From Dehalococcoidia bacterium (GTDB lineage: Bacteria; Chloroflexota; Dehalococcoidia; Lucifugimonadales; VXLM01): DNA of 64,000 nt. The position numbers and the translations under genes are program-made. The DNA is taken from contig OZ244722.1 of NCBI GenBank assembly GCA_965219245.1, forward strand, positions 1,785,212 to 1,849,211. Reading direction: 5' to 3'. Below the pieces are notes generated by a model. It searched no databases and was not told where the DNA came from. It was given only the letters and a program-made list of their open reading frames with translations. Below are positions 2,484 through 54,951 of this stretch, one piece after another; the first letter of the stretch is position 1, and every line of letters begins with the position of its first letter.

Positions 2484-3628
2484 TGTTATGAGTCGTAAGT
2501 AGTCAGTATAATAGAGGGCATGAGTAGTAGGAGGAAGTCATGCCCCGTGGTAGACCGTTGGCACCGTTGGAGATCGGCATAGAGGAGCGAGAAACCCTGG
2601 AGAGATTGGTCGCGCGTCGGAAGACGGCGCAAGCGCTGGCCCAACGCGCCCGGTTGATACTTGGCTGCGCCGAAGGTAAGTCCAACAAGACAGTGAGTGC
2701 TCAAGTGGGGCTCTCTCCCCAGACCGTGGGGAAGTGGCGTCGTCGGTTTCTCGAAAGAGGCTTGGATGGGCTCTTGGACGAACCGAGGCCCGGCGCTCCC
2801 CGCAAGATCACCGACACCGACGTCGAGAAAGTCGTCACTCTGACACTGGAAACGACACCTGACGACGCTACTCACTGGAGCACTCGTTCGATGGCCAGAC
2901 GCACCGGCATGAGCCAGAGCGCCATAAGCCGTATCTGGCGAGCCTTCGCTCTTCAACCTCATCGCACAGAGACCTTCAAACTGTCCACCGATCCTCTCTT
3001 CATCGAGAAGGTCCGAGACATCGTGGGACTGTACCTCAACCCACCGGACAAGGCTCTTGTACTGTGCGTAGACGAAAAATCGGGTATCCAAGCGCTGGAC
3101 CGTACCGCGCCTTTGTTGCCCATGCGTCCAGGCCAAGTCGAGAGACGTACTCACGACTACGCTCGGCACGGAACCACCGACCTGTTCGCGGCCCTTGACG
3201 TAGCTACCGGCAGGGTGATCGGCTCCTGCCAACGGCGCCATCGTTCGGTGGAGTTCCGCAAGTTCCTTGACAAGATCGATGACTCTGTACCCCCAGACCT
3301 CGATGTGCACATCATCCTCGACAACTCCTCAACCCACAAGACCGCGCTTATCCAACGATGGCTGGTTAAGCGGCCCCGTTACCATCTCCACTTCACTCCC
3401 ACCAGTTCATCATGGCTCAATCTTGTCGAGCGCTGGTTCGCCGCGCTGACGGATAAGCAGCTCAGACGGGGTGTCCACCGCAGTACACGCGAGCTTGAGG
3501 AAGCGATCCTTCACTACATCGAGTCTACCTGTGCCGATCCCAAGCCTTTCCGATGGACAAAAACGGCTGACGAAATCCTAGCCTCACTAGCAAGATATTG
3601 CATGCGAACTTATGACTCAGGACACTAG
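2480..3628 (+). mobile_element. IS630-family insertion sequence (complete)
   Basis: Imperfect 21-bp TIRs: 2480..2500 CTAGTGTTATGAGTCGTAAGT versus the reverse complement of 3608..3628, CTAGTGTCCTGAGTCATAAGT. Single transposase ORF. CTAG at both ends, consistent with the known CTAG target and TA duplication of IS630. Confidence 0.85.
2540..3628 (+). CDS. IS630 family transposase (HTH + DDE)
   Basis: 362 aa. N-terminal HTH (ARLILGCAEGKSNKTVSAQVGLSPQTVGKWRRRF) and a DDE core (LCVDEKSGIQ ... HIILDNSSTHK ... SSWLNLVERWF), typical of IS630/Tc1-mariner-type transposases. The stop TAG lies in the right TIR. Confidence 0.92.
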   Translation: MPRGRPLAPLEIGIEERETLERLVARRKTAQALAQRARLILGCAEGKSNKTVSAQVGLSPQTVGKWRRRFLERGLDGLLDEPRPGAPRKITDTDVEKVVTLTLETTPDDATHWSTRSMARRTGMSQSAISRIWRAFALQPHRTETFKLSTDPLFIEKVRDIVGLYLNPPDKALVLCVDEKSGIQALDRTAPLLPMRPGQVERRTHDYARHGTTDLFAALDVATGRVIGSCQRRHRSVEFRKFLDKIDDSVPPDLDVHIILDNSSTHKTALIQRWLVKRPRYHLHFTPTSSSWLNLVERWFAALTDKQLRRGVHRSTRELEEAILHYIESTCADPKPFRWTKTADEILASLARYCMRTYDSGH

Positions 3629-3751
3629 TACTCAGTCAACTTGAATATGATAAACAGACAGATGCCGATTTATCCCCTCTCCCGTCGTGGGAGAGGGCTA
3701 GGGTGAGGGTGCTTTGAGTAAGCTACCAAAATCATATGGAACCGGTACTAG
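3625..3751. mobile_element. MITE (CTAGTACTCAGTC ... GGAACCGGTACTAG)
   Basis: 127 bp with CTAG at both ends. Core cccctctcccgtcgtgggagagggctagggtgagggtg, followed by tttgagtaagctaccaaaatcatatggaaccggtactag. Confidence 0.7.
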
Positions 3752-3880
3752 TACTCAGTCAACTTGAATATGATAAACAGACAGATGCCGATTTATCCCC
3801 TCTCCCGTCGTGGGAGAGGGCTAGGGTGAGGGTGAGGGTGCTTTGAGTAAGCTACCAAAATCATATGGAACCGGTACTAG
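3748..3880. mobile_element. MITE (second tandem copy of the 3625 element)
   Basis: Near-identical to 3625..3751 with one extra gtgagg unit. Shares the CTAG junction. Confidence 0.7.
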
Positions 3881-17654: not shown

Positions 17655-18080
17655 CATTACCCTGAAAATAGCCCCCGTCCAACCTCCCGTAGGGGCGATT
17701 CGCGAATCGCCCTACCGCCATTTTCATGATTGGTGGTGTCGGTGACAACCGACATGAGCGATTCCTCTGAAAATAGCCCCCGTCCAACCTCCCGTAGGGG
17801 CGATTCGCGAATCGCCCTACCGCCATTTTCATGATTGGTGGTGTCGGTGGCAACCGATATGAGAGATTCCTCTGAAAATAAACCCCGTCCAACCTCCCGT
17901 AGGGGCGATTCGCGAATCGCCCCTACCGCCTTTTTCATGATTGGTGGTGTCGGTGACAACCGACATGAGCGATTCCTCTGAAAATAACCCCCGTCCAACC
18001 TCCGGTAGGGGCGATTCGCGAATCGCCCCTACCGCCTTTTTCATCTCCTTATATGGCCTCCACAAGGCCATGGTGATTCC
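17655..18080 (+). repeat. Tandem array of a 105-bp composite hairpin unit (3 full units plus a terminal variant)
   Basis: ctgaaaata begins at 17662, 17767, 17872 and 17978 (periods 105, 105, 106). Each unit holds the perfect 28-nt palindrome GTAGGGGCGATTCGCGAATCGCCCCTAC and a second small hairpin, gtcggtgacaaccgac. There are no unique spacers. Confidence 0.9.
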
Positions 18081-39468: not shown

Positions 39469-40611
39469 ATGTTGGAAACATCCCTACAAAACAAACCGCC
39501 AGCCCACGCCACCCTCACGGCCCCGCAGACGCCGTCATTCGTCTGTCACGTCGACGACCTCAAATGCACGGCGGCGCGCATACGAGAAGCCGCTCGCAAC
39601 GCCGATTGCACCCTCCTCTACTCGGTCAAAGCCAACGCACTCCCCGGAGTTCTGTCCGCCATCACCCCCTTCATCGACGGCTTCGGCGTCAGCTCGCTGG
39701 CCGAGGCGCGAGCCGCCCGAACGGCCCTCGGAGACTCCGGCAGGCTCCATCTCTGCACGGTCGCCGTCCCGCCTCCCGACGCCCAAGAGTTGGCGGACAT
39801 CTGCGACTACGTGACCTTCAACTCGCTCTCCCAGCTTCAGCGGTGGGGCCCCACCTTCACCGGACGCGCCTCGATCGGCCTGCGCGTAAACCCCGGACAC
39901 TCCTTCCTCGACGACCACAGATACGACCCATGCCGCCCTCACACCAAGCTGGGCGTTCCCCTCGACGACCTCGCCGCCTCAGCCGACCGTATTGCCCCAC
40001 TGATCGACGGCCTCCACATCCACTCCAACTGCGACTCAACCAACCTCGGCGAGCTGCTCGAGACCATCCAAGTCCTCGACTCTCGCCTTGGGCATGTCCT
40101 GTCGCAGGTCAAATGGGTCAATCTCGGAGGCGGCTACCTGTTCGACGAAGGAGCGAACCTCGATCCCCTAAGGGAAGCCGCAAGTCTCCTTCGTGACCGA
40201 CACGGCGCGGAGGTCATCATCGAGCCGGGAGCGGCCTTCGTGCGCGACAGCGGCTTCCTTGTGACGTCCGTGCTCGACCTGTTCGAGAGCGACGGCAAGG
40301 AAGTGGCCGTTCTGGACACGACCGTCAACCACATGCCGGAGGTCTTCGAGTACCAGTTCCGCCCCGACGTCCTCGGCCACCGCGACACGGGAGCGCATGA
40401 GTACGTCCTGGCCGGCATGTCTTGCTTGGCGGGTGACATCTTCGGCGACTATCGCTTCGATGATCCGCTGGAGTTCGGATCGCGCATCATATTCTCAAAC
40501 GCCGGGGCATACACTATCGTCAAGGCGAACACCTTCAACGGCATCCCTCTGCCCACCATCTACGAGTTGCGAGACGACGGGAGTTTCGTCGAGATGGCGG
40601 TGGCGTCGTGA
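39469..40611 (+). CDS. nspC: Carboxynorspermidine/carboxyspermidine decarboxylase
   Basis: Start refined to ATG 39469; the upstream part of track ORF 39028.. overlaps the divergent gene. LYSVKAN, FNSLSQL, LRVNPGHS...YDPCRPHTKLGV, GLHIHSNCDS, VNLGGGY, IIEPGAAF, AGMSCLAGDIFGDY and YTIVKANTFNGIPLP follow the NspC/CANSDC family. Confidence 0.85.
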   Translation: MLETSLQNKPPAHATLTAPQTPSFVCHVDDLKCTAARIREAARNADCTLLYSVKANALPGVLSAITPFIDGFGVSSLAEARAARTALGDSGRLHLCTVAVPPPDAQELADICDYVTFNSLSQLQRWGPTFTGRASIGLRVNPGHSFLDDHRYDPCRPHTKLGVPLDDLAASADRIAPLIDGLHIHSNCDSTNLGELLETIQVLDSRLGHVLSQVKWVNLGGGYLFDEGANLDPLREAASLLRDRHGAEVIIEPGAAFVRDSGFLVTSVLDLFESDGKEVAVLDTTVNHMPEVFEYQFRPDVLGHRDTGAHEYVLAGMSCLAGDIFGDYRFDDPLEFGSRIIFSNAGAYTIVKANTFNGIPLPTIYELRDDGSFVEMAVAS

Positions 40612-41996
40612 GGCTGTTCGAGCGCGAGCTTACCCAGACAGCGACGGACGGGCGTATCGGAACGCTCGAAGACATCCGGCGCATGATCGACGGACAACTC
40701 GACACCAATCAGATGCCGATACGTTTCGCCGTCACCGAGTCCTCTCCACACTCCTACCACTACGAGATCGGCATTCTCGAAGGGACAGGGTCTTTCGTCC
40801 CCTCCATGTTCGACCTCCATCCTCGACTCGACGAAAACGTGAGTTCCTTCAACGCGGTGCTCGTCGTGCCAACGGGCATCGGAGCGGAGATCGGCGGTCA
40901 CGCCGGTGACGCGACGCCCGTCGCGCGACTGCTGGCCTCCGTGTGCGACACGCTTATCACGCACCCGAACGTCGTCAACGCCTCAGACCTGAACGAGATC
41001 CCGGACAACGGCCTCTACGTCGAGGGCAGCCTCCTGAGCCGCTTTCTTACGGGCGCCATCGGCCTGAGACCCGTCCGATCAAACCGCGTCCTCGTCATCA
41101 TCGACGCCCACCCCAACGAGCGGTTCGCGCGCGCAACGGTCAACGCCGTCAACGCCGCGCGGGCGACCTATGGACTCCGATGCCCCCGTGTCGTCGTCCT
41201 AGATCCCCCGCTGCCGGTACGCGGCGAGTACACGCCGTCCGGACGCACAGCAGGGACCGTCGAGGACTTGGAACGGGTCTTCGAGGTGCTCGACACCCAC
41301 CGGGGCGAGTACGACGCCGTCGCCCTCTCAACCCTCGTCGACGTCGACGTGCCCCACGAGAGCTACTTCTCCTCGAGGGGCGAGATCGTCAACCCCTGGG
41401 GCGGCGTCGAGGCCATGCTCACCCACGCGATATCAACCCTCTACAACGTGCCGTCCGCCCACGCGCCGATGATGGAGTCGGTCGAGATCGCAAACATCGA
41501 CCCCGGCGTCGTCGACCCCCGCATGGCCGCTGAGGTCATCTCACTCACCTTCCTCCAGTCCGTCCTCAAGGGCTTGCACACCGCGCCGCGAATCGCCGTT
41601 GGCCCCACCGAAACAGCCAGTCTCTCCCCAGCCGGGGGAGAGATACAGAGAGGGGGCCACACCCTCACGGCGAGAGACGTATCCTGCCTCGTTATCCCCG
41701 ACGGCTGCATCGGGCTGCCGACTCTGGCCGCGCTCGAACAGGGCATACCGGTTATCGCCGTCCGCGAGAACCGGAGCCTGATGAGAAACGACCTCACACT
41801 ACTGCCCTGGTCCGACGACCAGCTGCACGTCGTCGAAAACTACTGGGAGGCCGCGGGGGTGATGGCAGCGCTGAAGGAGGGCATGTCGCCTGGCTCCGTG
41901 CGCCGACCTCTGCGCGATGTGCCCATCGAACGCACCCCCACGACCGAACGGTCCAGAGTCGGTCTTCCAACCCCGCCCGGCGGCGTAGAGCAATGA
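40608..41996 (+). CDS. Uncharacterised conserved protein (possibly DUF3326-like), translationally coupled to nspC
   Basis: GTGA overlap with the nspC stop. Gly-rich motif VLVVPTGIGAEIGGHAGDATPVARLLA. The family assignment is from memory only. Carries an in-frame repeat insertion at 41621..41668. Confidence 0.6.
   Translation: MRLFERELTQTATDGRIGTLEDIRRMIDGQLDTNQMPIRFAVTESSPHSYHYEIGILEGTGSFVPSMFDLHPRLDENVSSFNAVLVVPTGIGAEIGGHAGDATPVARLLASVCDTLITHPNVVNASDLNEIPDNGLYVEGSLLSRFLTGAIGLRPVRSNRVLVIIDAHPNERFARATVNAVNAARATYGLRCPRVVVLDPPLPVRGEYTPSGRTAGTVEDLERVFEVLDTHRGEYDAVALSTLVDVDVPHESYFSSRGEIVNPWGGVEAMLTHAISTLYNVPSAHAPMMESVEIANIDPGVVDPRMAAEVISLTFLQSVLKGLHTAPRIAVGPTETASLSPAGGEIQRGGHTLTARDVSCLVIPDGCIGLPTLAALEQGIPVIAVRENRSLMRNDLTLLPWSDDQLHVVENYWEAAGVMAALKEGMSPGSVRRPLRDVPIERTPTTERSRVGLPTPPGGVEQ
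41621..41668 (+). repeat. Palindromic repeat element inside a CDS (translated LSPAGGEIQRGGHTLT)
   Basis: tctctccccagccgggggagaga tacagagaggggg ccacaccctcac. The same hairpin plus tacagagaggggg occurs at 43211..43251, 43825..43866, 52978..53016 and 53190..53228. Confidence 0.8.
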
Positions 41997-42285: not shown

Positions 42286-42443
42286 TTTCCTGTGTCAGAG
42301 ATTCTTCGAACATATCAGCGCGTGAAAATCCCCTCTCCCGTCGTGGGAGAGAGCCTGCCCCGTACTCCCATACGGGGGTGAGGGCGGCTCCCCGGAACAC
42401 ACCCATCCAATGTATACAATGAACTTCAGAAACAGGACACTGG
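42282..42443. mobile_element. MITE (CTAGTTTCCTGTGTCAGAG ... AACAGGACACTGG)
   Basis: Homologous to 2037..2203. The right terminus is mutated (CTGG). Contains the ATGs at 42410 and 42419 used by the downstream ORF. Confidence 0.65.
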
Positions 42444-44329
42444 AACGGCCAGATTCGACCACCGGTCAACAGCTAGGTGCCGCCCTCCAATACGCCTACT
42501 CGACCTTTTCGACCTACCGTGACCTGTTCGAGGGAGCCGGAGTCGGACTAGACGCGCTTGTCAAGGACGACCCGCTTGCCGTCCTCGAACGGCTGCCGGT
42601 CATCGCCGCCGACACACTTGCGAGGGTGAGCGAAGAGAGCCTCTCGGTCGTCGACGGCATCGTGGACATGGAGACCTCATCCGGCACCACAGGCGTCCGA
42701 AAGAAACGCTTCATCTCCTACGAAGACGACCAAGACGACCACGCCTTCATGGCCGAGCTGTTTCGACTGGCGGGCATCAACGAGCACGACCGCGTGGCCT
42801 GCCTCGATACCGACCCCGTCTACCTGATGGTCTCATTCGCCCGCGCCCTCGATATCCTCGGCGTAGACGAATCATATGTCTACTCCGTAGGCCGCGATCA
42901 GGGCCAGACGCTCGATGCATTGGTGCGACTCGACCCCACCGCGATCTTCGCCGTGCCGTCCATGTTCGAGCGGTGCTGGCCCGCACTCCGCCGGCTCTAC
43001 GACCAAGCAGGACGCGGCAGCCTGAGCAAGGTCGTCTTCCTCGGCGAGCGAGTCCCCCGCCGGCTGAGAGCGCAGTTGGAGTCCGAGCATGGCGTCGAGG
43101 TCTTCAGCTACTACGGCGCAGCCGAGACCTCGTCACTCGGCATCGAATGTACGGCCCACACAGGCATCCACCTCTACACCGACCGCAACCTATTCGAACT
43201 GACCAACACCAATCGTCTCTCCCCCGCCGGGGGAGAGATACAGAGAGGGGGGCGTGAGGTCACCAACAGCCCCCTCTCCCTTGAAGGAGAGGGCCTGCCC
43301 CGTACTCGATACGGAGGTGAGGGTGATCATACCCCCTCTCCCGTCGTGGGAGAGGGTTGGGGTGAGGGTGACCATGCCCCCTCTCCCGTCGTGGGAGAGG
43401 GCTGGGGTGAGGGTGACCATACCCCCTCTCCCGTCGTGGGAGAGGGCTGGGGTGAGGGTGACCATACCCCCTCTCCCGTCGTGGGAGAGGGTTGGGGTGA
43501 GGGTGACCATACTACCCCCTCTCCCGTCGTGGGAGAGAGCTGGGGTGAGGGTGAGACAGCCCCCACCGGAGAAGAGATGCAGACAGGCGCGCTCGCAGAT
43601 ACCAACAATCTCTCCCCCACCGGAGAAGAGATGCAGACAGGCGCGCGCGCAGATACCAACAATCTCTCCCCCACCGGAGAAGAGATGCAGACAGGCGCGC
43701 TCGCAGATACCAACAATCTCTCCCCCACCGGAGAAGAGATGCAGACAGGCGCGCGCGCAGATACCAACAATCTCTCCCCCACCGGAGAAGAGATACAGAC
43801 AGGCGCGCGCGCAGACACCAACAATCTCTCCCCCGCCGGAGAAGAGATACAGAGAGGGGGGCTCGTCGTCACAAGCCTCCTGCAGAAGACCGTCCCCCTC
43901 GTGCGATACTCCCTCGGCGACGAGATAGTCCTGCTCCCCGGCGACTGCCCGTGCGGCCTACCGCACCCGCGAGTCGACGTGCTCGGTCGAGCAGGGGACA
44001 GCTTCGCCATTCTCGGCTCCACGTTCCACTACGACTCGTTCCTGCGCTCGGTCTACAAGAACCTCGACGAGGTCGGCTACATGCAGGTCGTCCTCACGAC
44101 CGAGGCTCAAGATGTCCTCACGGTCCTCCTCCCCGCCGAGATGCACCCCCACGAAAAGCGCATGAAGGACTCGCTCCTCTCCGACCAGCTCGAATTGGAG
44201 TTCCTCCTCACCAGCAAGCTCGCGTCCCTGCGGTTCGACTACGTAGACGAGTCCTACTTCACCGGCTCCCGGAAGATGAAGCTGGTCGATGACCGGAGAC
44301 AAAAGGAGGCAACTGTTCAGACTTCGTGA
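42410..44329 (+). CDS. PaaK / coenzyme F390 synthetase-type adenylate-forming ligase carrying about 650 bp of in-frame repeats (function possibly compromised)
   Basis: N-domain motifs ETSSGTTGVRKK (P-loop), YYGAAETSS and HLYTD. C-terminal GLVVTSLLQKTVPLVRYSLGDEI...CPCGLPHPRVDVLGRAGD. The start lies in a MITE and the stop in another MITE TIR. Repeats occupy 43211..43866. Confidence 0.6.
   Translation: MYTMNFRNRTLERPDSTTGQQLGAALQYAYSTFSTYRDLFEGAGVGLDALVKDDPLAVLERLPVIAADTLARVSEESLSVVDGIVDMETSSGTTGVRKKRFISYEDDQDDHAFMAELFRLAGINEHDRVACLDTDPVYLMVSFARALDILGVDESYVYSVGRDQGQTLDALVRLDPTAIFAVPSMFERCWPALRRLYDQAGRGSLSKVVFLGERVPRRLRAQLESEHGVEVFSYYGAAETSSLGIECTAHTGIHLYTDRNLFELTNTNRLSPAGGEIQRGGREVTNSPLSLEGEGLPRTRYGGEGDHTPSPVVGEGWGEGDHAPSPVVGEGWGEGDHTPSPVVGEGWGEGDHTPSPVVGEGWGEGDHTTPSPVVGESWGEGETAPTGEEMQTGALADTNNLSPTGEEMQTGARADTNNLSPTGEEMQTGALADTNNLSPTGEEMQTGARADTNNLSPTGEEIQTGARADTNNLSPAGEEIQRGGLVVTSLLQKTVPLVRYSLGDEIVLLPGDCPCGLPHPRVDVLGRAGDSFAILGSTFHYDSFLRSVYKNLDEVGYMQVVLTTEAQDVLTVLLPAEMHPHEKRMKDSLLSDQLELEFLLTSKLASLRFDYVDESYFTGSRKMKLVDDRRQKEATVQTS
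43329..43559 (+). repeat. Tandem array, 5 units of 45 bp (one of 48), inside the ligase CDS
   Basis: Unit ccccctctcccgtcgtgggagagggctggggtgagggtgaccata, starting at 43332, 43377, 43422, 43467 and 43515. Translated PSPVVGEGWGEGDHT. This is the MITE hairpin core. Confidence 0.9.
43556..43866 (+). repeat. Tandem array, about 5.7 units of 54 bp, inside the ligase CDS
   Basis: Unit tctctcccccaccggagaagagatgcagacaggcgcgc(t/g)cgcagataccaacaa, starting at 43609, 43663, 43717, 43771 and 43825. Translated LSPTGEEMQTGA(L/R)ADTNN. Confidence 0.9.
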
Positions 44330-44583
44330 GAGCACTCGATAGACGCAGCTATCGTCATACCCCTTTCCCACAACCGTCATACCGGCGAAGAGCCTGCCCC
44401 GTACTCCGATACGGGGCCGGTATCCAGAGGGGCGGGGGGTGGGGTTTGATGGTGTCGATTCTAAGTCCCGCCCCTTTTTACAGATCATGCAAAGGCCTCC
44501 GAAAGAACGTCACCCCGTACCACGATACGGGGCGGGTATCCACAGCGGTGGGGAGTATTCGTCTCATCAACTCTGAACAGTTA
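44309..44583. mobile_element. MITE with 22-bp imperfect TIRs AACTGTTCAGA(C/G)TT..TGAGA
   Basis: Left AACTGTTCAGACTTCGTGAGAG (44311..) versus the reverse complement of the right end, AACTGTTCAGAGTTGATGAGAC (..44583): 18/22 identical. The interior holds two gccccgta..tacggggc hairpin repeats. Confidence 0.55.
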
Positions 44584-44600
44584 CAAAAGGTGCTGCCATA

Positions 44601-45113
44601 ATGCAGGTCTTCTTCATCGCGCTCGCCATCCTCAGCGGAGCGGGAATCTCCATGCAGGCTGCCATGCTCGGCGCGGTAGGCACGGCGCGCACCCCCGCGG
44701 CCGCCGTGTGGATATCCCTGCTCGCAACGGTCGTCGGCCTCACCGCATTCGTAATCTACCGCTCCGCCACCTCGTCCATCGGCCTTCCCCCACCGTTCGA
44801 CCGCCCTTACATCATGATCGCCTTCGCAATCGCCGCAACCGTCGCGCTGGCCTTCTCCGCACGGGACATCGAGTGGTACTACGTCCTCACCGGCCTGATG
44901 CCGATCCCATTCCTCGTCGGCGCGGGATTCCTCGCCCCCCGCCTCGGAGTCGGACTCTTCATCTCCGCCGCCATCGCCGGACAGCTCACCGCCGCCGTCC
45001 TGCTCGACCACATCGGCGCTTTCGGCGGCAACCTCATACGCGCCGACTACATCCGCCTACTCGGCATCGCCGCCCTCATGACCGGCGTCGTCCTCATCCG
45101 CGGCTTCAACTAA
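44601..45113 (+). CDS. DMT-superfamily membrane protein (DUF606/YdcZ-like)
   Basis: 170 aa, 5 TM. ILSGAGISMQAAMLG and AAIAGQLTAAVLLDHIGAFG match the YdcZ family pattern. Confidence 0.75.
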   Translation: MQVFFIALAILSGAGISMQAAMLGAVGTARTPAAAVWISLLATVVGLTAFVIYRSATSSIGLPPPFDRPYIMIAFAIAATVALAFSARDIEWYYVLTGLMPIPFLVGAGFLAPRLGVGLFISAAIAGQLTAAVLLDHIGAFGGNLIRADYIRLLGIAALMTGVVLIRGFN

Positions 45114-52413: not shown

Positions 52414-53862
52414 ATGACATCACACAAAGACCACCAACTCGACCAACTCGGCATAAACTCCCAGTACGAGGCCGACGAGCTCGAACGAGAGCTCGACATA
52501 CGCTTCGACAGGTTCTCCTACCACGGCCGCGAGGCCTGGGTCCAGCAGAACGCCTACCTCGACGCCTACGCCAACACGCGCGCCGTCTCCAACGCCGCAG
52601 ACACAGCGGGCGTCACCGTCCCCACCGCGCAGGCGTGGAAATTCCTCAACACCCTCGGCTTCAAACGCAGACTCGAAATCGCCGACCTCCGCTTCTCCGA
52701 CAGCCTCCAGGTCATGGCCCTCGAACGCGCAAGAGAACCCGACGCCCCAGCGTCCCTCCTCATCGCTCTCCTTCGCGCCCACATACCCGAAAAATTCTCC
52801 TCCAACGGACACACCTGCGACACCTCAAAGGCCGACGAACTCCTCTTCCTCTACAGCCAGGACGCCAAACGAGAACTCGACGCGGGCCATCCTACCTTCC
52901 GCGCCATCGCCAACGGGACCTACCAACCACCCAACCGTCATACCGGCGGAGGCGGGAATCCAGAGGCGGCCCATTCCAATCTCTCCCCCGCCGGGGGAGA
53001 GATACAGAGAGGGGGATCCTTCCCTGAAAACCAATATGACTCCCAAGAGACCACCCTCCCCCACGACGACATCTCTCCCGACGAACCCGACACCCCCACC
53101 CGTCATTCCCGCGAACGCGGGAATCCAGAGGCGGCCCATTCCAATCTCTCCCCCGCCGGAGAAGACACTCCCCGTTCCAATCTCTCCCCCGCCGGGGGAG
53201 AGATACAGAGAGGGGGATCCTTCCCTGAAAACCAATACGATTCCCAAGAGACCACGCCCCACGACGACATCCACCCCGTCGACCCCGACGAGATCGCCCG
53301 CGCCAACCTCTCCCCCTCACCGGAAGAACACACCTCTTCCCCCTCTCCCGTTGTGGGAGAGAGCCTGCCCCGTACTCGATACGGGGGCTGGGGTGAGGGT
53401 GAGGGTGAAATGCCCCGTCCCCAGAACCCAGCACCTAGCACCCAGAACCCCTCCGCGCCCTCCGCGCCCTCTGCGGTGAATCCCTCCCCAACACCCCAGA
53501 ACCCAGCACCTAGCACCCAGAACCCCTCCGCGTCCTCCGCGCCCTCTGCGGTGAATCCCTCTCCAACACCCCAGAACCCAGCACCTAGCACCCAGAACCC
53601 CTCCGCGTCCTCTGCGCTCTCTGCGGTGAATCCTTCCCCAACACCCCAGAACCCAGCACCTAGCACCCAGAACCCCTCTGCGTCCTCTGCGCTCTCTGCG
53701 GTGAATCCTTCCCCAACACCCCAGAACCCAGCACCTAGCACCCAGAACCCCTCTGCGTCCTCTGCGGTGAAACCAACCCGCCGCCCCATCGCCTCAATAT
53801 TCCAAACACGCAGACCCTCCCAAAACGACGACCCCAACACCTTCAAAGTAACTCGCTTCTAA
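52414..53862 (+). CDS. HTH protein (terminase-small-subunit-like / homeodomain-like N-domain) with a repeat-derived C-terminal tail
   Basis: Start refined to ATG 52414. The N-terminal ~135 aa are paralogous to 54046..54951 (YANTRAVSNAADTAGVTVPTAQAWKFLNTLGFKRRLEIA...LLIALLRAHIPEKF). The remaining ~350 aa are translated repeats. Confidence 0.5.
   Translation: MTSHKDHQLDQLGINSQYEADELERELDIRFDRFSYHGREAWVQQNAYLDAYANTRAVSNAADTAGVTVPTAQAWKFLNTLGFKRRLEIADLRFSDSLQVMALERAREPDAPASLLIALLRAHIPEKFSSNGHTCDTSKADELLFLYSQDAKRELDAGHPTFRAIANGTYQPPNRHTGGGGNPEAAHSNLSPAGGEIQRGGSFPENQYDSQETTLPHDDISPDEPDTPTRHSRERGNPEAAHSNLSPAGEDTPRSNLSPAGGEIQRGGSFPENQYDSQETTPHDDIHPVDPDEIARANLSPSPEEHTSSPSPVVGESLPRTRYGGWGEGEGEMPRPQNPAPSTQNPSAPSAPSAVNPSPTPQNPAPSTQNPSASSAPSAVNPSPTPQNPAPSTQNPSASSALSAVNPSPTPQNPAPSTQNPSASSALSAVNPSPTPQNPAPSTQNPSASSAVKPTRRPIASIFQTRRPSQNDDPNTFKVTRF
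53420..53775 (+). repeat. Tandem array, about 4.7 units of 75 bp
   Basis: cccagaaccc starts at 53420, 53495, 53570, 53645 and 53720. The unit contains the ccctctgcggtgaatcc repeat. Translated QNPAPSTQNPSASSAPSAVNPSPTP. Confidence 0.9.
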
Positions 53863-54045: not shown

Positions 54046-54951
54046 ATGCCCTCCCTATACGAAACCCTAGGCATCTCATCCCAACTAGAAGCCGCCGAGC
54101 TCGAACAGGACCTCGGCATCCGCTTCGACGACTTCACACCCGAAGACGCCGACACATGGATTCGCCAGACCCTCTACCTCGGCCAGTACGCCAACACCCG
54201 CACCTTCACTCACGCCGTGCGTGAAGCGGGCGTCTCCCTTCGCCACGCCAGAACATGGCAGACCGAAAACACCCTCGGCTTCAACCAACGCCTCCAAATA
54301 GCCGTCCTCGAATACACCGAAGAGATCGAGGTCCTTCTCTTGGAGCAAGTCCGACAGCCCAAACCCTCCCCCGCGCTCCTCGCAATGCTCCTCCGAGCGC
54401 ACCTCCCCGAAAAATACGGCCCCGCGCGCCGCCAAAGCGCCCCGCGGGCCAGCCACTCCGACCACGACGACGACCCCAAGCCGGAAACCTCCCAAGACGA
54501 CCGTGAATCCCTAGACGACATCCGCCAAGACCTCCAACAACTCAACCAATTCGCCGGCCTCACCGACCCTACCTCCAATCTCTCCCCCGCCGACCTACCA
54601 CCCGTAGGGGCAGGTTTCAAACCTGCCCCCGATCCCTCCCCCACCGGAGAAGACACGTCCCATCCCAATCTCTCCCCCAACGGAGAAGACACTTCCCATC
54701 CCAATCTCTCCCCCGCATCCTCACACCCCTCCGCGCCCTCCACATCTTCCCCCTCTCCCGTCGTGGGAGAGACCTGGGCTGAGGGCGATCTGCCCCATCC
54801 CCAGCACCCAGCACCTAACACCCAGAACCCTCCCCTCACCCGCCGCCAACGCCGTCAACTCCAACGAAAACAACGCAAACAACGCAAGGCCCCGCGCCCC
54901 GATGCGCGGACCAAACAACCCAACTCCCACCGCCCACGCGCCCCCAACTGA
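54046..54951 (+). CDS. HTH protein, paralog of 52414..53862, with repeat-derived and basic C-terminal tail
   Basis: YANTRTFTHAVREAGVSLRHARTWQTENTLGFNQRLQIAVLEY...LLAMLLRAHLPEKY. The tail contains LPPVGAGFKPAP (palindrome gtaggggcaggtttcaaacctgcccc), PSPVVGETW and RRQRRQLQRKQRKQRK. Confidence 0.5.
   Translation: MPSLYETLGISSQLEAAELEQDLGIRFDDFTPEDADTWIRQTLYLGQYANTRTFTHAVREAGVSLRHARTWQTENTLGFNQRLQIAVLEYTEEIEVLLLEQVRQPKPSPALLAMLLRAHLPEKYGPARRQSAPRASHSDHDDDPKPETSQDDRESLDDIRQDLQQLNQFAGLTDPTSNLSPADLPPVGAGFKPAPDPSPTGEDTSHPNLSPNGEDTSHPNLSPASSHPSAPSTSSPSPVVGETWAEGDLPHPQHPAPNTQNPPLTRRQRRQLQRKQRKQRKAPRPDARTKQPNSHRPRAPN

Follow-up and report, generated by a model that had tools for sequence, protein, structure and literature searches.

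The 64-kb stretch of Dehalococcoidia DNA analysed here (the window; contig OZ244722.1) carries a gene for a PaaK-like adenylate-forming ligase, and inside this gene lies an in-frame insert built from palindromic elements and tandem arrays. Related alleles carry inserts of many different lengths, all of them read in frame, and both flanks of the ligase are under purifying selection. It is probable that selfish palindromic elements colonised a permissive loop of the enzyme, nested there and amplified in tandem, while out-of-frame variants were selected away. The insert is most likely tolerated selfish DNA and not a functional module. The gene and the parts of its insert are as follows.

42410..44329, + strand: gene for the PaaK-like (ANL superfamily) adenylate-forming ligase, 639 aa, host of the insert.
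43202..43861, + strand: whole repeat-derived insert, 660 nt, 220 aa; borders from the ortholog alignment.
43202-43216, + strand: lead TNTNR, 15 nt; codon-aligned segmentation.
43217..43252, + strand: opening palindromic element (PE), 36 nt, read LSPAGGEIQRGG; stem ATCTCTCCCCC/GGGGGAGAGAT.
43253..43333, + strand: double-hairpin element, 81 nt, read REVTNSPLSLEGEGLPRTRYGGEGDHT; an H1-like hairpin (TTGAA loop), then the H2 hairpin CCCCGTACTCGATACGG.
43334..43558, + strand: 45-bp array; five units of 45, 45, 45, 48 and 42 nt.
43559..43825, + strand: 54-bp array; five units, one of 51 nt followed by four of 54 nt.
43826..43861, + strand: closing PE, read LSPAGEEIQRGG, adjoining the A6-like strand LVVTSL.

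This layout (PE, double hairpin, 45-bp array, 54-bp array, closing PE) had been proposed by an earlier sequence-only reading of the same DNA, and each part is present where that reading placed it. The open reading frame (ORF) is open on both sides of the insert, ending in ...HLYTDRNLFEL before it and resuming with LVVTSLLQKTVPLVRYSLGDE after it, which bears out the claim that the C-terminal domain is in frame with the N-terminal one. Some measurements needed revision. The in-frame insert, put at about 216 aa, comprises 660 nt or 220 aa; the count of five 45-bp units stands, with two of them 48 and 42 nt long; and the 54-bp array, given as about 5.7 units, is segmented into five. The unit lengths are all multiples of three, as had been noted, and this includes the 48- and 42-nt variants.

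The PE has the nucleotide sequence CTCTCCCCCGCCGGGGGAGAGATACAGAGAGGGGGG, translated LSPAGGEIQRGG, and forms a perfect 11-bp stem with a single-strand fold of -23.6 kcal/mol. The double-hairpin element folds at -34.2 kcal/mol (z = -3.1), and the same module is common to the window and to L011-L014, L020 and L021 (L-numbers denote the relatives' contigs and P-numbers homologous proteins). The 45-bp unit consists of the H1 hairpin CCCTCTCCCGTCGTGGGAGAGGG and a tail TGGGGTGAGGGTGACCATACC, encodes the peptide PSPVVGEGWGEGDHT and folds at -22.2 kcal/mol; Tandem Repeats Finder reports it with a period of 45 and 5.2 copies (94% matches, score 416). In the 54-bp unit a decayed PE with G-to-A changes is joined to the linker ADTNN, giving the peptide LSPTGEEMQTGA[R/L]ADTNN, and the array of these units is reported with a period of 54 and 5.5 copies (97% matches, score 547). 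The unit's hairpin potential is gone, since it folds no better than shuffled sequence (z = -0.3). The insert replaces an ancestral 11-aa loop, GPSEREGSDGQ, for a net gain of 209 aa. Among its repeat-spanning peptides are ADTNNLSPTGEEMQTGAR and EVTNSPLSLEGEGLPR, the first of which is a tryptic peptide expected twice in the window allele (trypsin cuts after R).

A search with the insert-free protein as query returns 512 relatives, the nearest named genomes being Dehalococcoidia metagenome-assembled genomes. Ortholog alignment places the insertion point in a variable loop, which has 6-11 residues in 38 insert-free homologs (43-83% identity) and in the closer of these usually reads GPSEREGSDGQ; the loop is hydrophilic and poorly conserved. 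Inserts are found in 15 alleles with 67-92% BLAST identity to the query (75-94% in global alignment), one of them known as a partial protein only. Their 14 lengths are 17, 24, 27, 34, 52, 65, 71, 80, 95, 109, 158, 204, 220 and 241 aa, and all 15 alleles read in frame across the insert; the length polymorphism that the sequence-only reading had proposed to look for in related strains therefore exists. No allele ending inside the insert occurs among the best 120 matches.

The alleles also differ in how the insert is built. The smallest, L015 and L017, have one PE in place of GPSEREG, with L017 retaining the ancestral SDGQ, while the larger alleles have in common the order PE, double-hairpin element, 54-bp units, PE. 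In the examined alleles the insert ends with a PE adjoining the C-terminal flank, and the closing PE of the window occupies the position of the sole PE in the minimal alleles L015, L016 and L017. The single-PE state of the smallest alleles and this constant PE beside the C-terminal flank support the earlier suggestion that the arrays grew from a single initial insertion. The 45-bp units number five in the window and four in L011 and are absent from L012-L014; the 54-bp units vary from 2 to about 9 copies, and their order also differs in L011-L014. L012 has a second double-hairpin element and an insert of 241 aa, and in L019 two PEs enclose another element, of the VRPEPVEG family, that is about 110 bp long and has inverted ends.

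Assemblies classically go wrong at repeat arrays, and a repeat region that was collapsed, or joined to the gene as a chimera, would produce a picture of this kind. The same nested architecture is recovered independently on contigs from at least seven ENA samples with flank identities of 87-98%, so misassembly is not credible. The 660-bp array is also far below long-read length, and the contig names (ctgN_11x_l) suggest long-read assemblies. An assembly artefact is thus very unlikely.

Selection at the DNA level is measured on nine insert-bearing sequences, namely eight contigs and the window, a set to which L019-L021 do not belong. Their dN/dS is 0.08-0.23 in the N-terminal part and 0.05-0.36 in the 148 codons after the insert, and none of the nine has a frameshift in the ligase flanks. 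Five genes with large inserts share the double-hairpin insertion and have therefore diverged after it, with dS of 0.04-0.23 in the C part and 0.19-0.44 in the N part. Among these five the C-terminal pN/pS is 0.20-0.37, and non-synonymous changes downstream of the insert are depleted with P = 2e-5 to 1e-3 in seven of ten pairs and P = 0.006-0.07 in the three closest pairs. Judging from these sequences, the ligase is presumably still made and active.

The alternative of a recently inactivated gene, left standing by the sequence-only reading, would have the array kill the enzyme, with the frame open only since the units are multiples of three and GC-rich repeats rarely hold stops. Such a pseudogene is unlikely, given that neither a frameshift nor a stop interrupts the 1.2 kb of flanks in the five diverged large-insert alleles and that the depletion of non-synonymous changes downstream of the insert reaches P = 2e-5. 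Missing catalytic segments had been named as a sign of inactivation; the recognisable adenylation motifs SSGTTG (A3), YGAAET (A5), RYSLGDE (A7), GRAGD (A8) and SRKMK (A10) can all be read intact in the translation. The ligase is part of a conserved gene cluster in the order Orn/DAP/Arg decarboxylase, DUF3326, ligase, YdcZ-type transporter, and in the window its operon partners are intact, the DUF3326 gene included. On four relatives' contigs (L013-L016) the DUF3326 gene is decayed, with 1 to about 10 frame-shifting indels, and the ligase beside it is intact. Two of these indels are common to assemblies from different samples and are therefore real mutations. The DUF3326 decay shows what neutral decay has done over the same period as the ligase insert, and a true pseudogene next door that has gained up to about ten such indels disfavours inactivation of the ligase.

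Several observations weigh against an insert kept in frame by selection, and the pseudogene explanation draws its support from the same quarter. As the units are multiples of three, expansion keeps the frame automatically, so part of the in-frame pattern needs no ongoing selection, and stops are in any case absent from two of the insert's three sense frames. The C-terminal pN/pS has a median of 0.30 in the large-insert genes against 0.16 in insert-free orthologs, and constraint may be relaxed in the former, though the two sets are not equally diverged or saturated, the insert-free pairs being the more diverged. About 55 codons past the insert, the insert-bearing allele P0075 has a frameshift, and three insert-free alleles (P0077, P0080, P0114) are frameshifted too; since this happens with and without the insert, the gene is dispensable and lost in some lineages regardless of it. 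The decay of DUF3326 in four strains may likewise mean that the pathway is being lost.

The assignment of the host protein holds at the superfamily level. The ligase scores 36.5 bits with Pfam AMP-binding (cut-off 29.9) and passes this threshold whether the insert is included or not. Without the insert it matches PaaK-family structures in the PDB (4r1l, E = 1.8e-12; also AjiA1 and NatL2), and Foldseek on the ligase model ranks PaaK1 (2y27) first with a target-normalised TM score of 0.69. The host protein thus has its fold and adenylation motifs in common with the PaaK, or phenylacetate-CoA ligase, family (2y27, 4r1l), but scores far under every NCBIfam equivalog cut-off. The insert-free ortholog P0014 has 50.5 bits with the PaaK profile TIGR02155 (equivalog cut-off 646.3) and 40.8 bits with the F390 synthetase profile TIGR03335 (cut-off 458.7). 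With scores an order of magnitude under the cut-offs, PaaK proper and coenzyme F390 synthetase are both ruled out at the equivalog level, and of the earlier label 'PaaK/F390-synthetase-like' only the superfamily part can be kept.

In an AlphaFold model made with a 51-sequence alignment (residue numbers for the protein started at MNFRN), the flanks have a predicted local distance difference test score (pLDDT) mostly of 80-96, with four 10-residue blocks at 67-78. For residues 266-474 the pLDDT is below 50 and no secondary structure is predicted. The insert spans the gap from strand 257-263 to strand 479-486 of the model, between motifs A5 (YGAAET) and A6 (G-x-LVVTSL) and directly before the A6-type strand. 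The surface-loop insertion suggested by the sequence-only reading finds support in this model, which predicts a disordered excursion from a beta-hairpin with both domains confident. In the alignment with 4r1l, PaaK's own variable stretch DPETGEPVPEGEIGE lies at the insert position, which is a gap-prone hairpin in PaaK structures.

Removal of the insert before the enzyme matures, by an intein, an intron or translational bypass, has nothing in its favour beyond the position inside a conserved gene and is hardly conceivable. Pfam finds AMP-binding only on the ligase and no Hint/intein domain, Rfam finds no intron family in the window, and the insert borders are without the Cys/Ser/Thr and His-Asn residues of the intein type. 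Lengths from 17 aa upwards and shifting borders are unlike a splicing element, and with the frame open a bypass is unnecessary.

Gly makes up 19% of the insert peptide, Glu 13%, Thr 11% and Pro 9%; the net charge is -29, and the hydrophobic fraction is 0.16 versus 0.38 in the flanks. Three of the insert's six frames are stop-free, and only the used one (sense frame 0) is also Cys-free and acidic. Of the two sense frames without stops it is the less hydrophobic one; the other would yield a pI of 11.5 and 5 Cys. No terminator-like site is found on the sense strand of the insert.

These properties bear on co-option. On that view the variable, strongly acidic and disordered segment would itself serve a function, for example in solubility, tethering, interaction or regulation, and its differences in length would be adaptive. 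Large inserts are kept in many strains, the same benign frame is always used, and the net charge recalls known entropic-bristle sequences. Similar H1-like arrays also lie in frame in linkers of unrelated proteins from other organisms, namely between the Zn_protease and 7TM_transglut domains of P0150 and inside the 1524-aa protein P0130. Neither the length (17-241 aa) nor the composition of the insert is conserved, though, and the element families differ by strain; the differences between units (R/L, T/A, I/M) look unconstrained. Most orthologs function with an 11-aa loop, and intergenic DNA is filled by the same elements. Co-option is accordingly rather unlikely, and tolerated selfish DNA is the reading followed below.

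A second gene of the cluster behaves like the ligase.

41620..41655, + strand: PE in the DUF3326 gene (40608..41996), read LSPAGGEIQRGGH; second hot spot (41598-41660).

This PE is read in the same frame as the ligase PE, and it occurs in six lineages and is missing from seven. The alleles of the site measure 30 (ancestral), 39, 63, 105, 156 and 177 nt, all divisible by three, and are built from the PE, from H1 with a 45-bp-like unit (L020) and from the VRPEPVEG element (L012, L019). In L021 the DUF3326 frame appears to break past the PE, on a contig with a coverage of only 2x, where the ligase is intact.

The repeats are far beyond chance in the window as a whole. With up to 3 mismatches allowed, a PE 34-mer is found 5 times versus 0 expected, and the H1 core, the 23-mer CCCTCTCCCGTCGTGGGAGAGGG of the 45-bp unit, has 21 matches versus 0 expected. 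Of the 16 H1 copies outside the insert, 14 lie outside any plausible gene, and the H1 core of the insert array is identical to the dispersed copies. Altogether the 64 kb hold 21 H1, 12 H2 and 10 PE copies, with H1 and H2 mostly intergenic and PE found inside ORFs only. The PE frame LSPAGGEIQRGG is reused at three independent sites (the ligase, DUF3326 and the tail of ORF 52414-53862), and a second PE reading frame occurs in a spurious ORF elsewhere (P0157).

The sequence-only reading had equated the 45-bp unit with an intergenic core of a miniature inverted-repeat transposable element (MITE). The shared H1 core stands, and the MITE label is not established for the hairpin elements, as no consistent terminal repeats or target duplications were found for PE, H1 and H2. 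The starts of PE copies vary, some having CGTC-TCTCC and others AATC or AGTC; repetitive extragenic palindromes mobilised by RAYT proteins have a conserved GTAG or CGTC head. The end pairing GGTCACC/GGTGATC of the double-hairpin element belongs to the window/L011 variant only, and this terminal inverted repeat was rejected as a defining feature since it is absent from the L012-L014 variants. No Rfam family is matched in the whole window.

Most copies lie on the + strand: 20 of 21 for H1, 10 of 10 for PE, 10 of 10 for the CTGCGGTGAA type and 5 of 6 for the GTCATTCC type. The cumulative GC skew drops nearly monotonically over the window. The strand bias and the GC skew are both what transposition via single-stranded DNA (the lagging strand) would be expected to leave. 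Related contigs have DDE and IS66 transposase genes near the locus.

Mobility of the elements is also seen downstream of the insert, at the end of the ligase gene.

44300..44592, + strand: composite element of about 290 bp; inverted ends CAACTGTTCAGA/TCTGAACAGTT and an 8-bp flanking direct repeat ACAAAAGG.

This element sits where, in the ancestral state, the stop of the ligase overlaps the start of the YdcZ transporter (GCCATGA). It gives the ligase its last residues, QKEATVQTS, and its stop codon, uncouples ligase and transporter, and places a promoter-like match (44574-44602) before the transporter. The window, L011, L012 and L015 carry the element, and L001, L003, L010, L013, L014 and L016 lack it. 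Within it, the loop of the palindrome GTCATACCGGCGAAGGCCGGTATCC holds a 25-bp H2 element AGCCTGCCCCGTACTCCGATACGGG at about 44385-44410 in the window and L011, and not in L012 or L015. This insertion into a hairpin loop is clean and recent, and it suggests a targeting of existing palindromes by the elements. In L020 an H1 element interrupts the PE of the DUF3326 gene. Both cases show elements nested in one another, and since strains differ in the copies they carry, the elements are mobile.

Array copy number changes between alleles with 98% identical flanks, and the alleles are recombination mosaics. Compared with L011 (37258-45112), the window has 92.4% identity upstream of about 43360 and 98.0% over 43361-45112, and the corresponding dS is 0.435 in the N part and 0.037 in the C part. 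The jump in identity at about 43360 falls inside the 45-bp array and thus marks a recombination boundary in or next to the repeats.

A probable course of events can be proposed from these patterns. One PE would first have landed in the loop-coding stretch, replacing most of the 11-residue loop; that stretch itself holds a short inverted repeat (CCCCTC...GAGGG). Further elements may then have nested into or beside the first PE, the resident hairpin drawing new insertions. The 45- and 54-bp sub-units would have been amplified head to tail via slippage or unequal recombination, and the junction ...GGGTGACCATACC/CCCTCTCCC is array-specific, which points to duplication and not to repeated insertion. 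Allele exchange would finally have reshuffled the arrays. Only variants in frame, and using the stop-free, Cys-free, acidic and hydrophilic frame, would persist, and the product would be a ligase with a disordered acidic loop of about 220 residues and both folded domains intact, most likely neutral or slightly costly.

A bolder proposal, which is possible but doubtful, is that the elements insert preferentially into existing hairpins, so that a tolerated in-frame copy becomes a self-reinforcing landing pad that goes on acquiring, nesting and amplifying selfish DNA. The process would be ongoing at the population level and would involve several genes (the ligase, DUF3326 and ORFs 52414-53862 and 54046-54951), with some segments perhaps co-opted. 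If this is true, conserved enzymes would be gaining long disordered segments from non-coding repeats by an ongoing population-level route.

ORFs 52414-53862 and 54046-54951 are paralogous and have a common N-terminal domain of about 170 aa without a Pfam match. Their remainders are almost all dispersed repeats (PE, GTCATTCC...GGAATCC palindromes and H1/H2), and they also hold a 75-bp array of 4.6 copies and a 36-bp array. A conserved basic tail follows the repeats in ORF 54046-54951 and in its homolog P0171 from elsewhere, so the repeats of these two may be translated linkers. Elsewhere in the window, an array at 17662-18044 (105 bp x 3.6) is centred on the palindrome GGGGCGATTCGCGAATCGCCCC, and one at 3627-3874 (123 bp x 2) holds an H1 copy; both unit lengths are multiples of three.

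Searches beyond the close relatives give few further hosts. HMMER with the 220-aa insert against 1.84 billion representatives finds 82 weak matches, mostly compositional (collagen-like Gly-rich repeats, for example), of which a few are truly element-derived (P0130, P0150, P0157, P0171). A word-indexed protein search with the composite insert peptide gives 15 candidates with one match and is of no use for a host census. Scans of Joint Genome Institute (JGI) metagenome contigs for exact PE patterns give 0 and 1 match. The one match, L018 (MKWU01085894.1, 1.3 kb), has a PE at 600-660 in the opposite orientation in apparently non-coding, repeat-rich DNA, where it adjoins GTAACTGTTCAGTCTTCGTGAG, the end sequence of the 3' composite element of the window. 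This copy argues against the idea that the PE is restricted to coding regions.

The origin of new protein sequence and the gain of long disordered loops by enzymes are open questions. The locus presents a graded natural series across close strains, which starts with the ancestral loop of 11 residues, goes on to one 12-residue element and reaches 241 residues made of at least four repeat families, with the host gene under selection throughout. It gives unusually direct access to selfish DNA becoming protein sequence, and the long-standing idea of selfish palindromes as seeds of new protein segments becomes directly testable here. For annotation, it shows that ORFs filled with repeats in high-GC metagenome genomes are not necessarily pseudogenes or misassemblies.

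Among known systems, the Rickettsia palindromic elements (RPEs; Ogata et al. 2000, 2002) are the extreme case of in-frame read-through of mobile repeats (review PMC10969869). Like the elements described here, RPEs are palindromic selfish repeats that occur both between genes and in frame in unrelated conserved genes, with the same peptide frame in different hosts, at fold-compatible sites and with the host genes retained. The present repeats likewise have a stable hairpin (except the 54-bp unit), lie in frame in the ligase and DUF3326 with a shared frame, and occupy a loop that the model predicts to be compatible with the fold. They differ from RPEs in their host phylum (Dehalococcoidia) and in size, being about 23-81 bp long as against about 100-150 bp. 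In the ligase, unlike in RPE hosts, several families nest at one site and are tandem-amplified to a third of the protein, and the length of the site varies among close strains; tandem amplification and strain-level length variation are not mentioned for RPEs in the review (PMC10969869). The locus is thus an analogue of the RPEs and not a member of their family, as it belongs to another phylum and the window has no Rfam match. No relevant report of RPE-like elements in Chloroflexi/Chloroflexota or sponge symbionts was found in a literature whose coverage is incomplete.

Intragenic ERIC, BOX and Correia elements and the Anabaena MITEs are likewise small non-autonomous repeats that are read through and vary in presence or absence. 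The intragenic cases of MITEs and of repetitive extragenic palindromic (REP) sequences are described as insertions and not arrays, and some of them inactivate the gene (PMC10969869). The present repeats resemble MITEs in their many dispersed copies with presence/absence differences among strains, and H1 and H2 resemble REPs and bacterial interspersed mosaic elements (BIMEs) in being short (20-40 bp) imperfect palindromes of high copy number that are mainly extragenic. Unlike the MITE and REP fusions, a composite array here persists with its host gene under purifying selection, and a neighbouring gene behaves alike.

In-frame variable number tandem repeats (VNTRs) are known in bacterial genes, for example in mycobacterial MIRU-type loci and in the repeats of surface proteins. 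Like the arrays described here, they consist of head-to-tail units divisible by three, with a strain-variable copy number and the frame kept. In the ligase, by contrast, the units derive from dispersed palindromic mobile elements, and they lie in a catalytic-domain loop of a cytoplasmic enzyme and not in a surface or linker protein. PARCELs (PMC2996958) are also tandem coding repeats with dyad symmetry in the DNA, a variable copy number and an association with mobile DNA. They are 25-residue amphipathic domains in ORFs of uncharacterised, often membrane-targeted proteins (PMC2996958) and, in contrast to the insert, are not insertions in a conserved enzyme fold and are without intergenic counterparts. 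In-frame read-through of small mobile repeats is known, and what this locus adds is the nesting of several families at a codon-level hot spot, their tandem amplification and length variation at the strain level.

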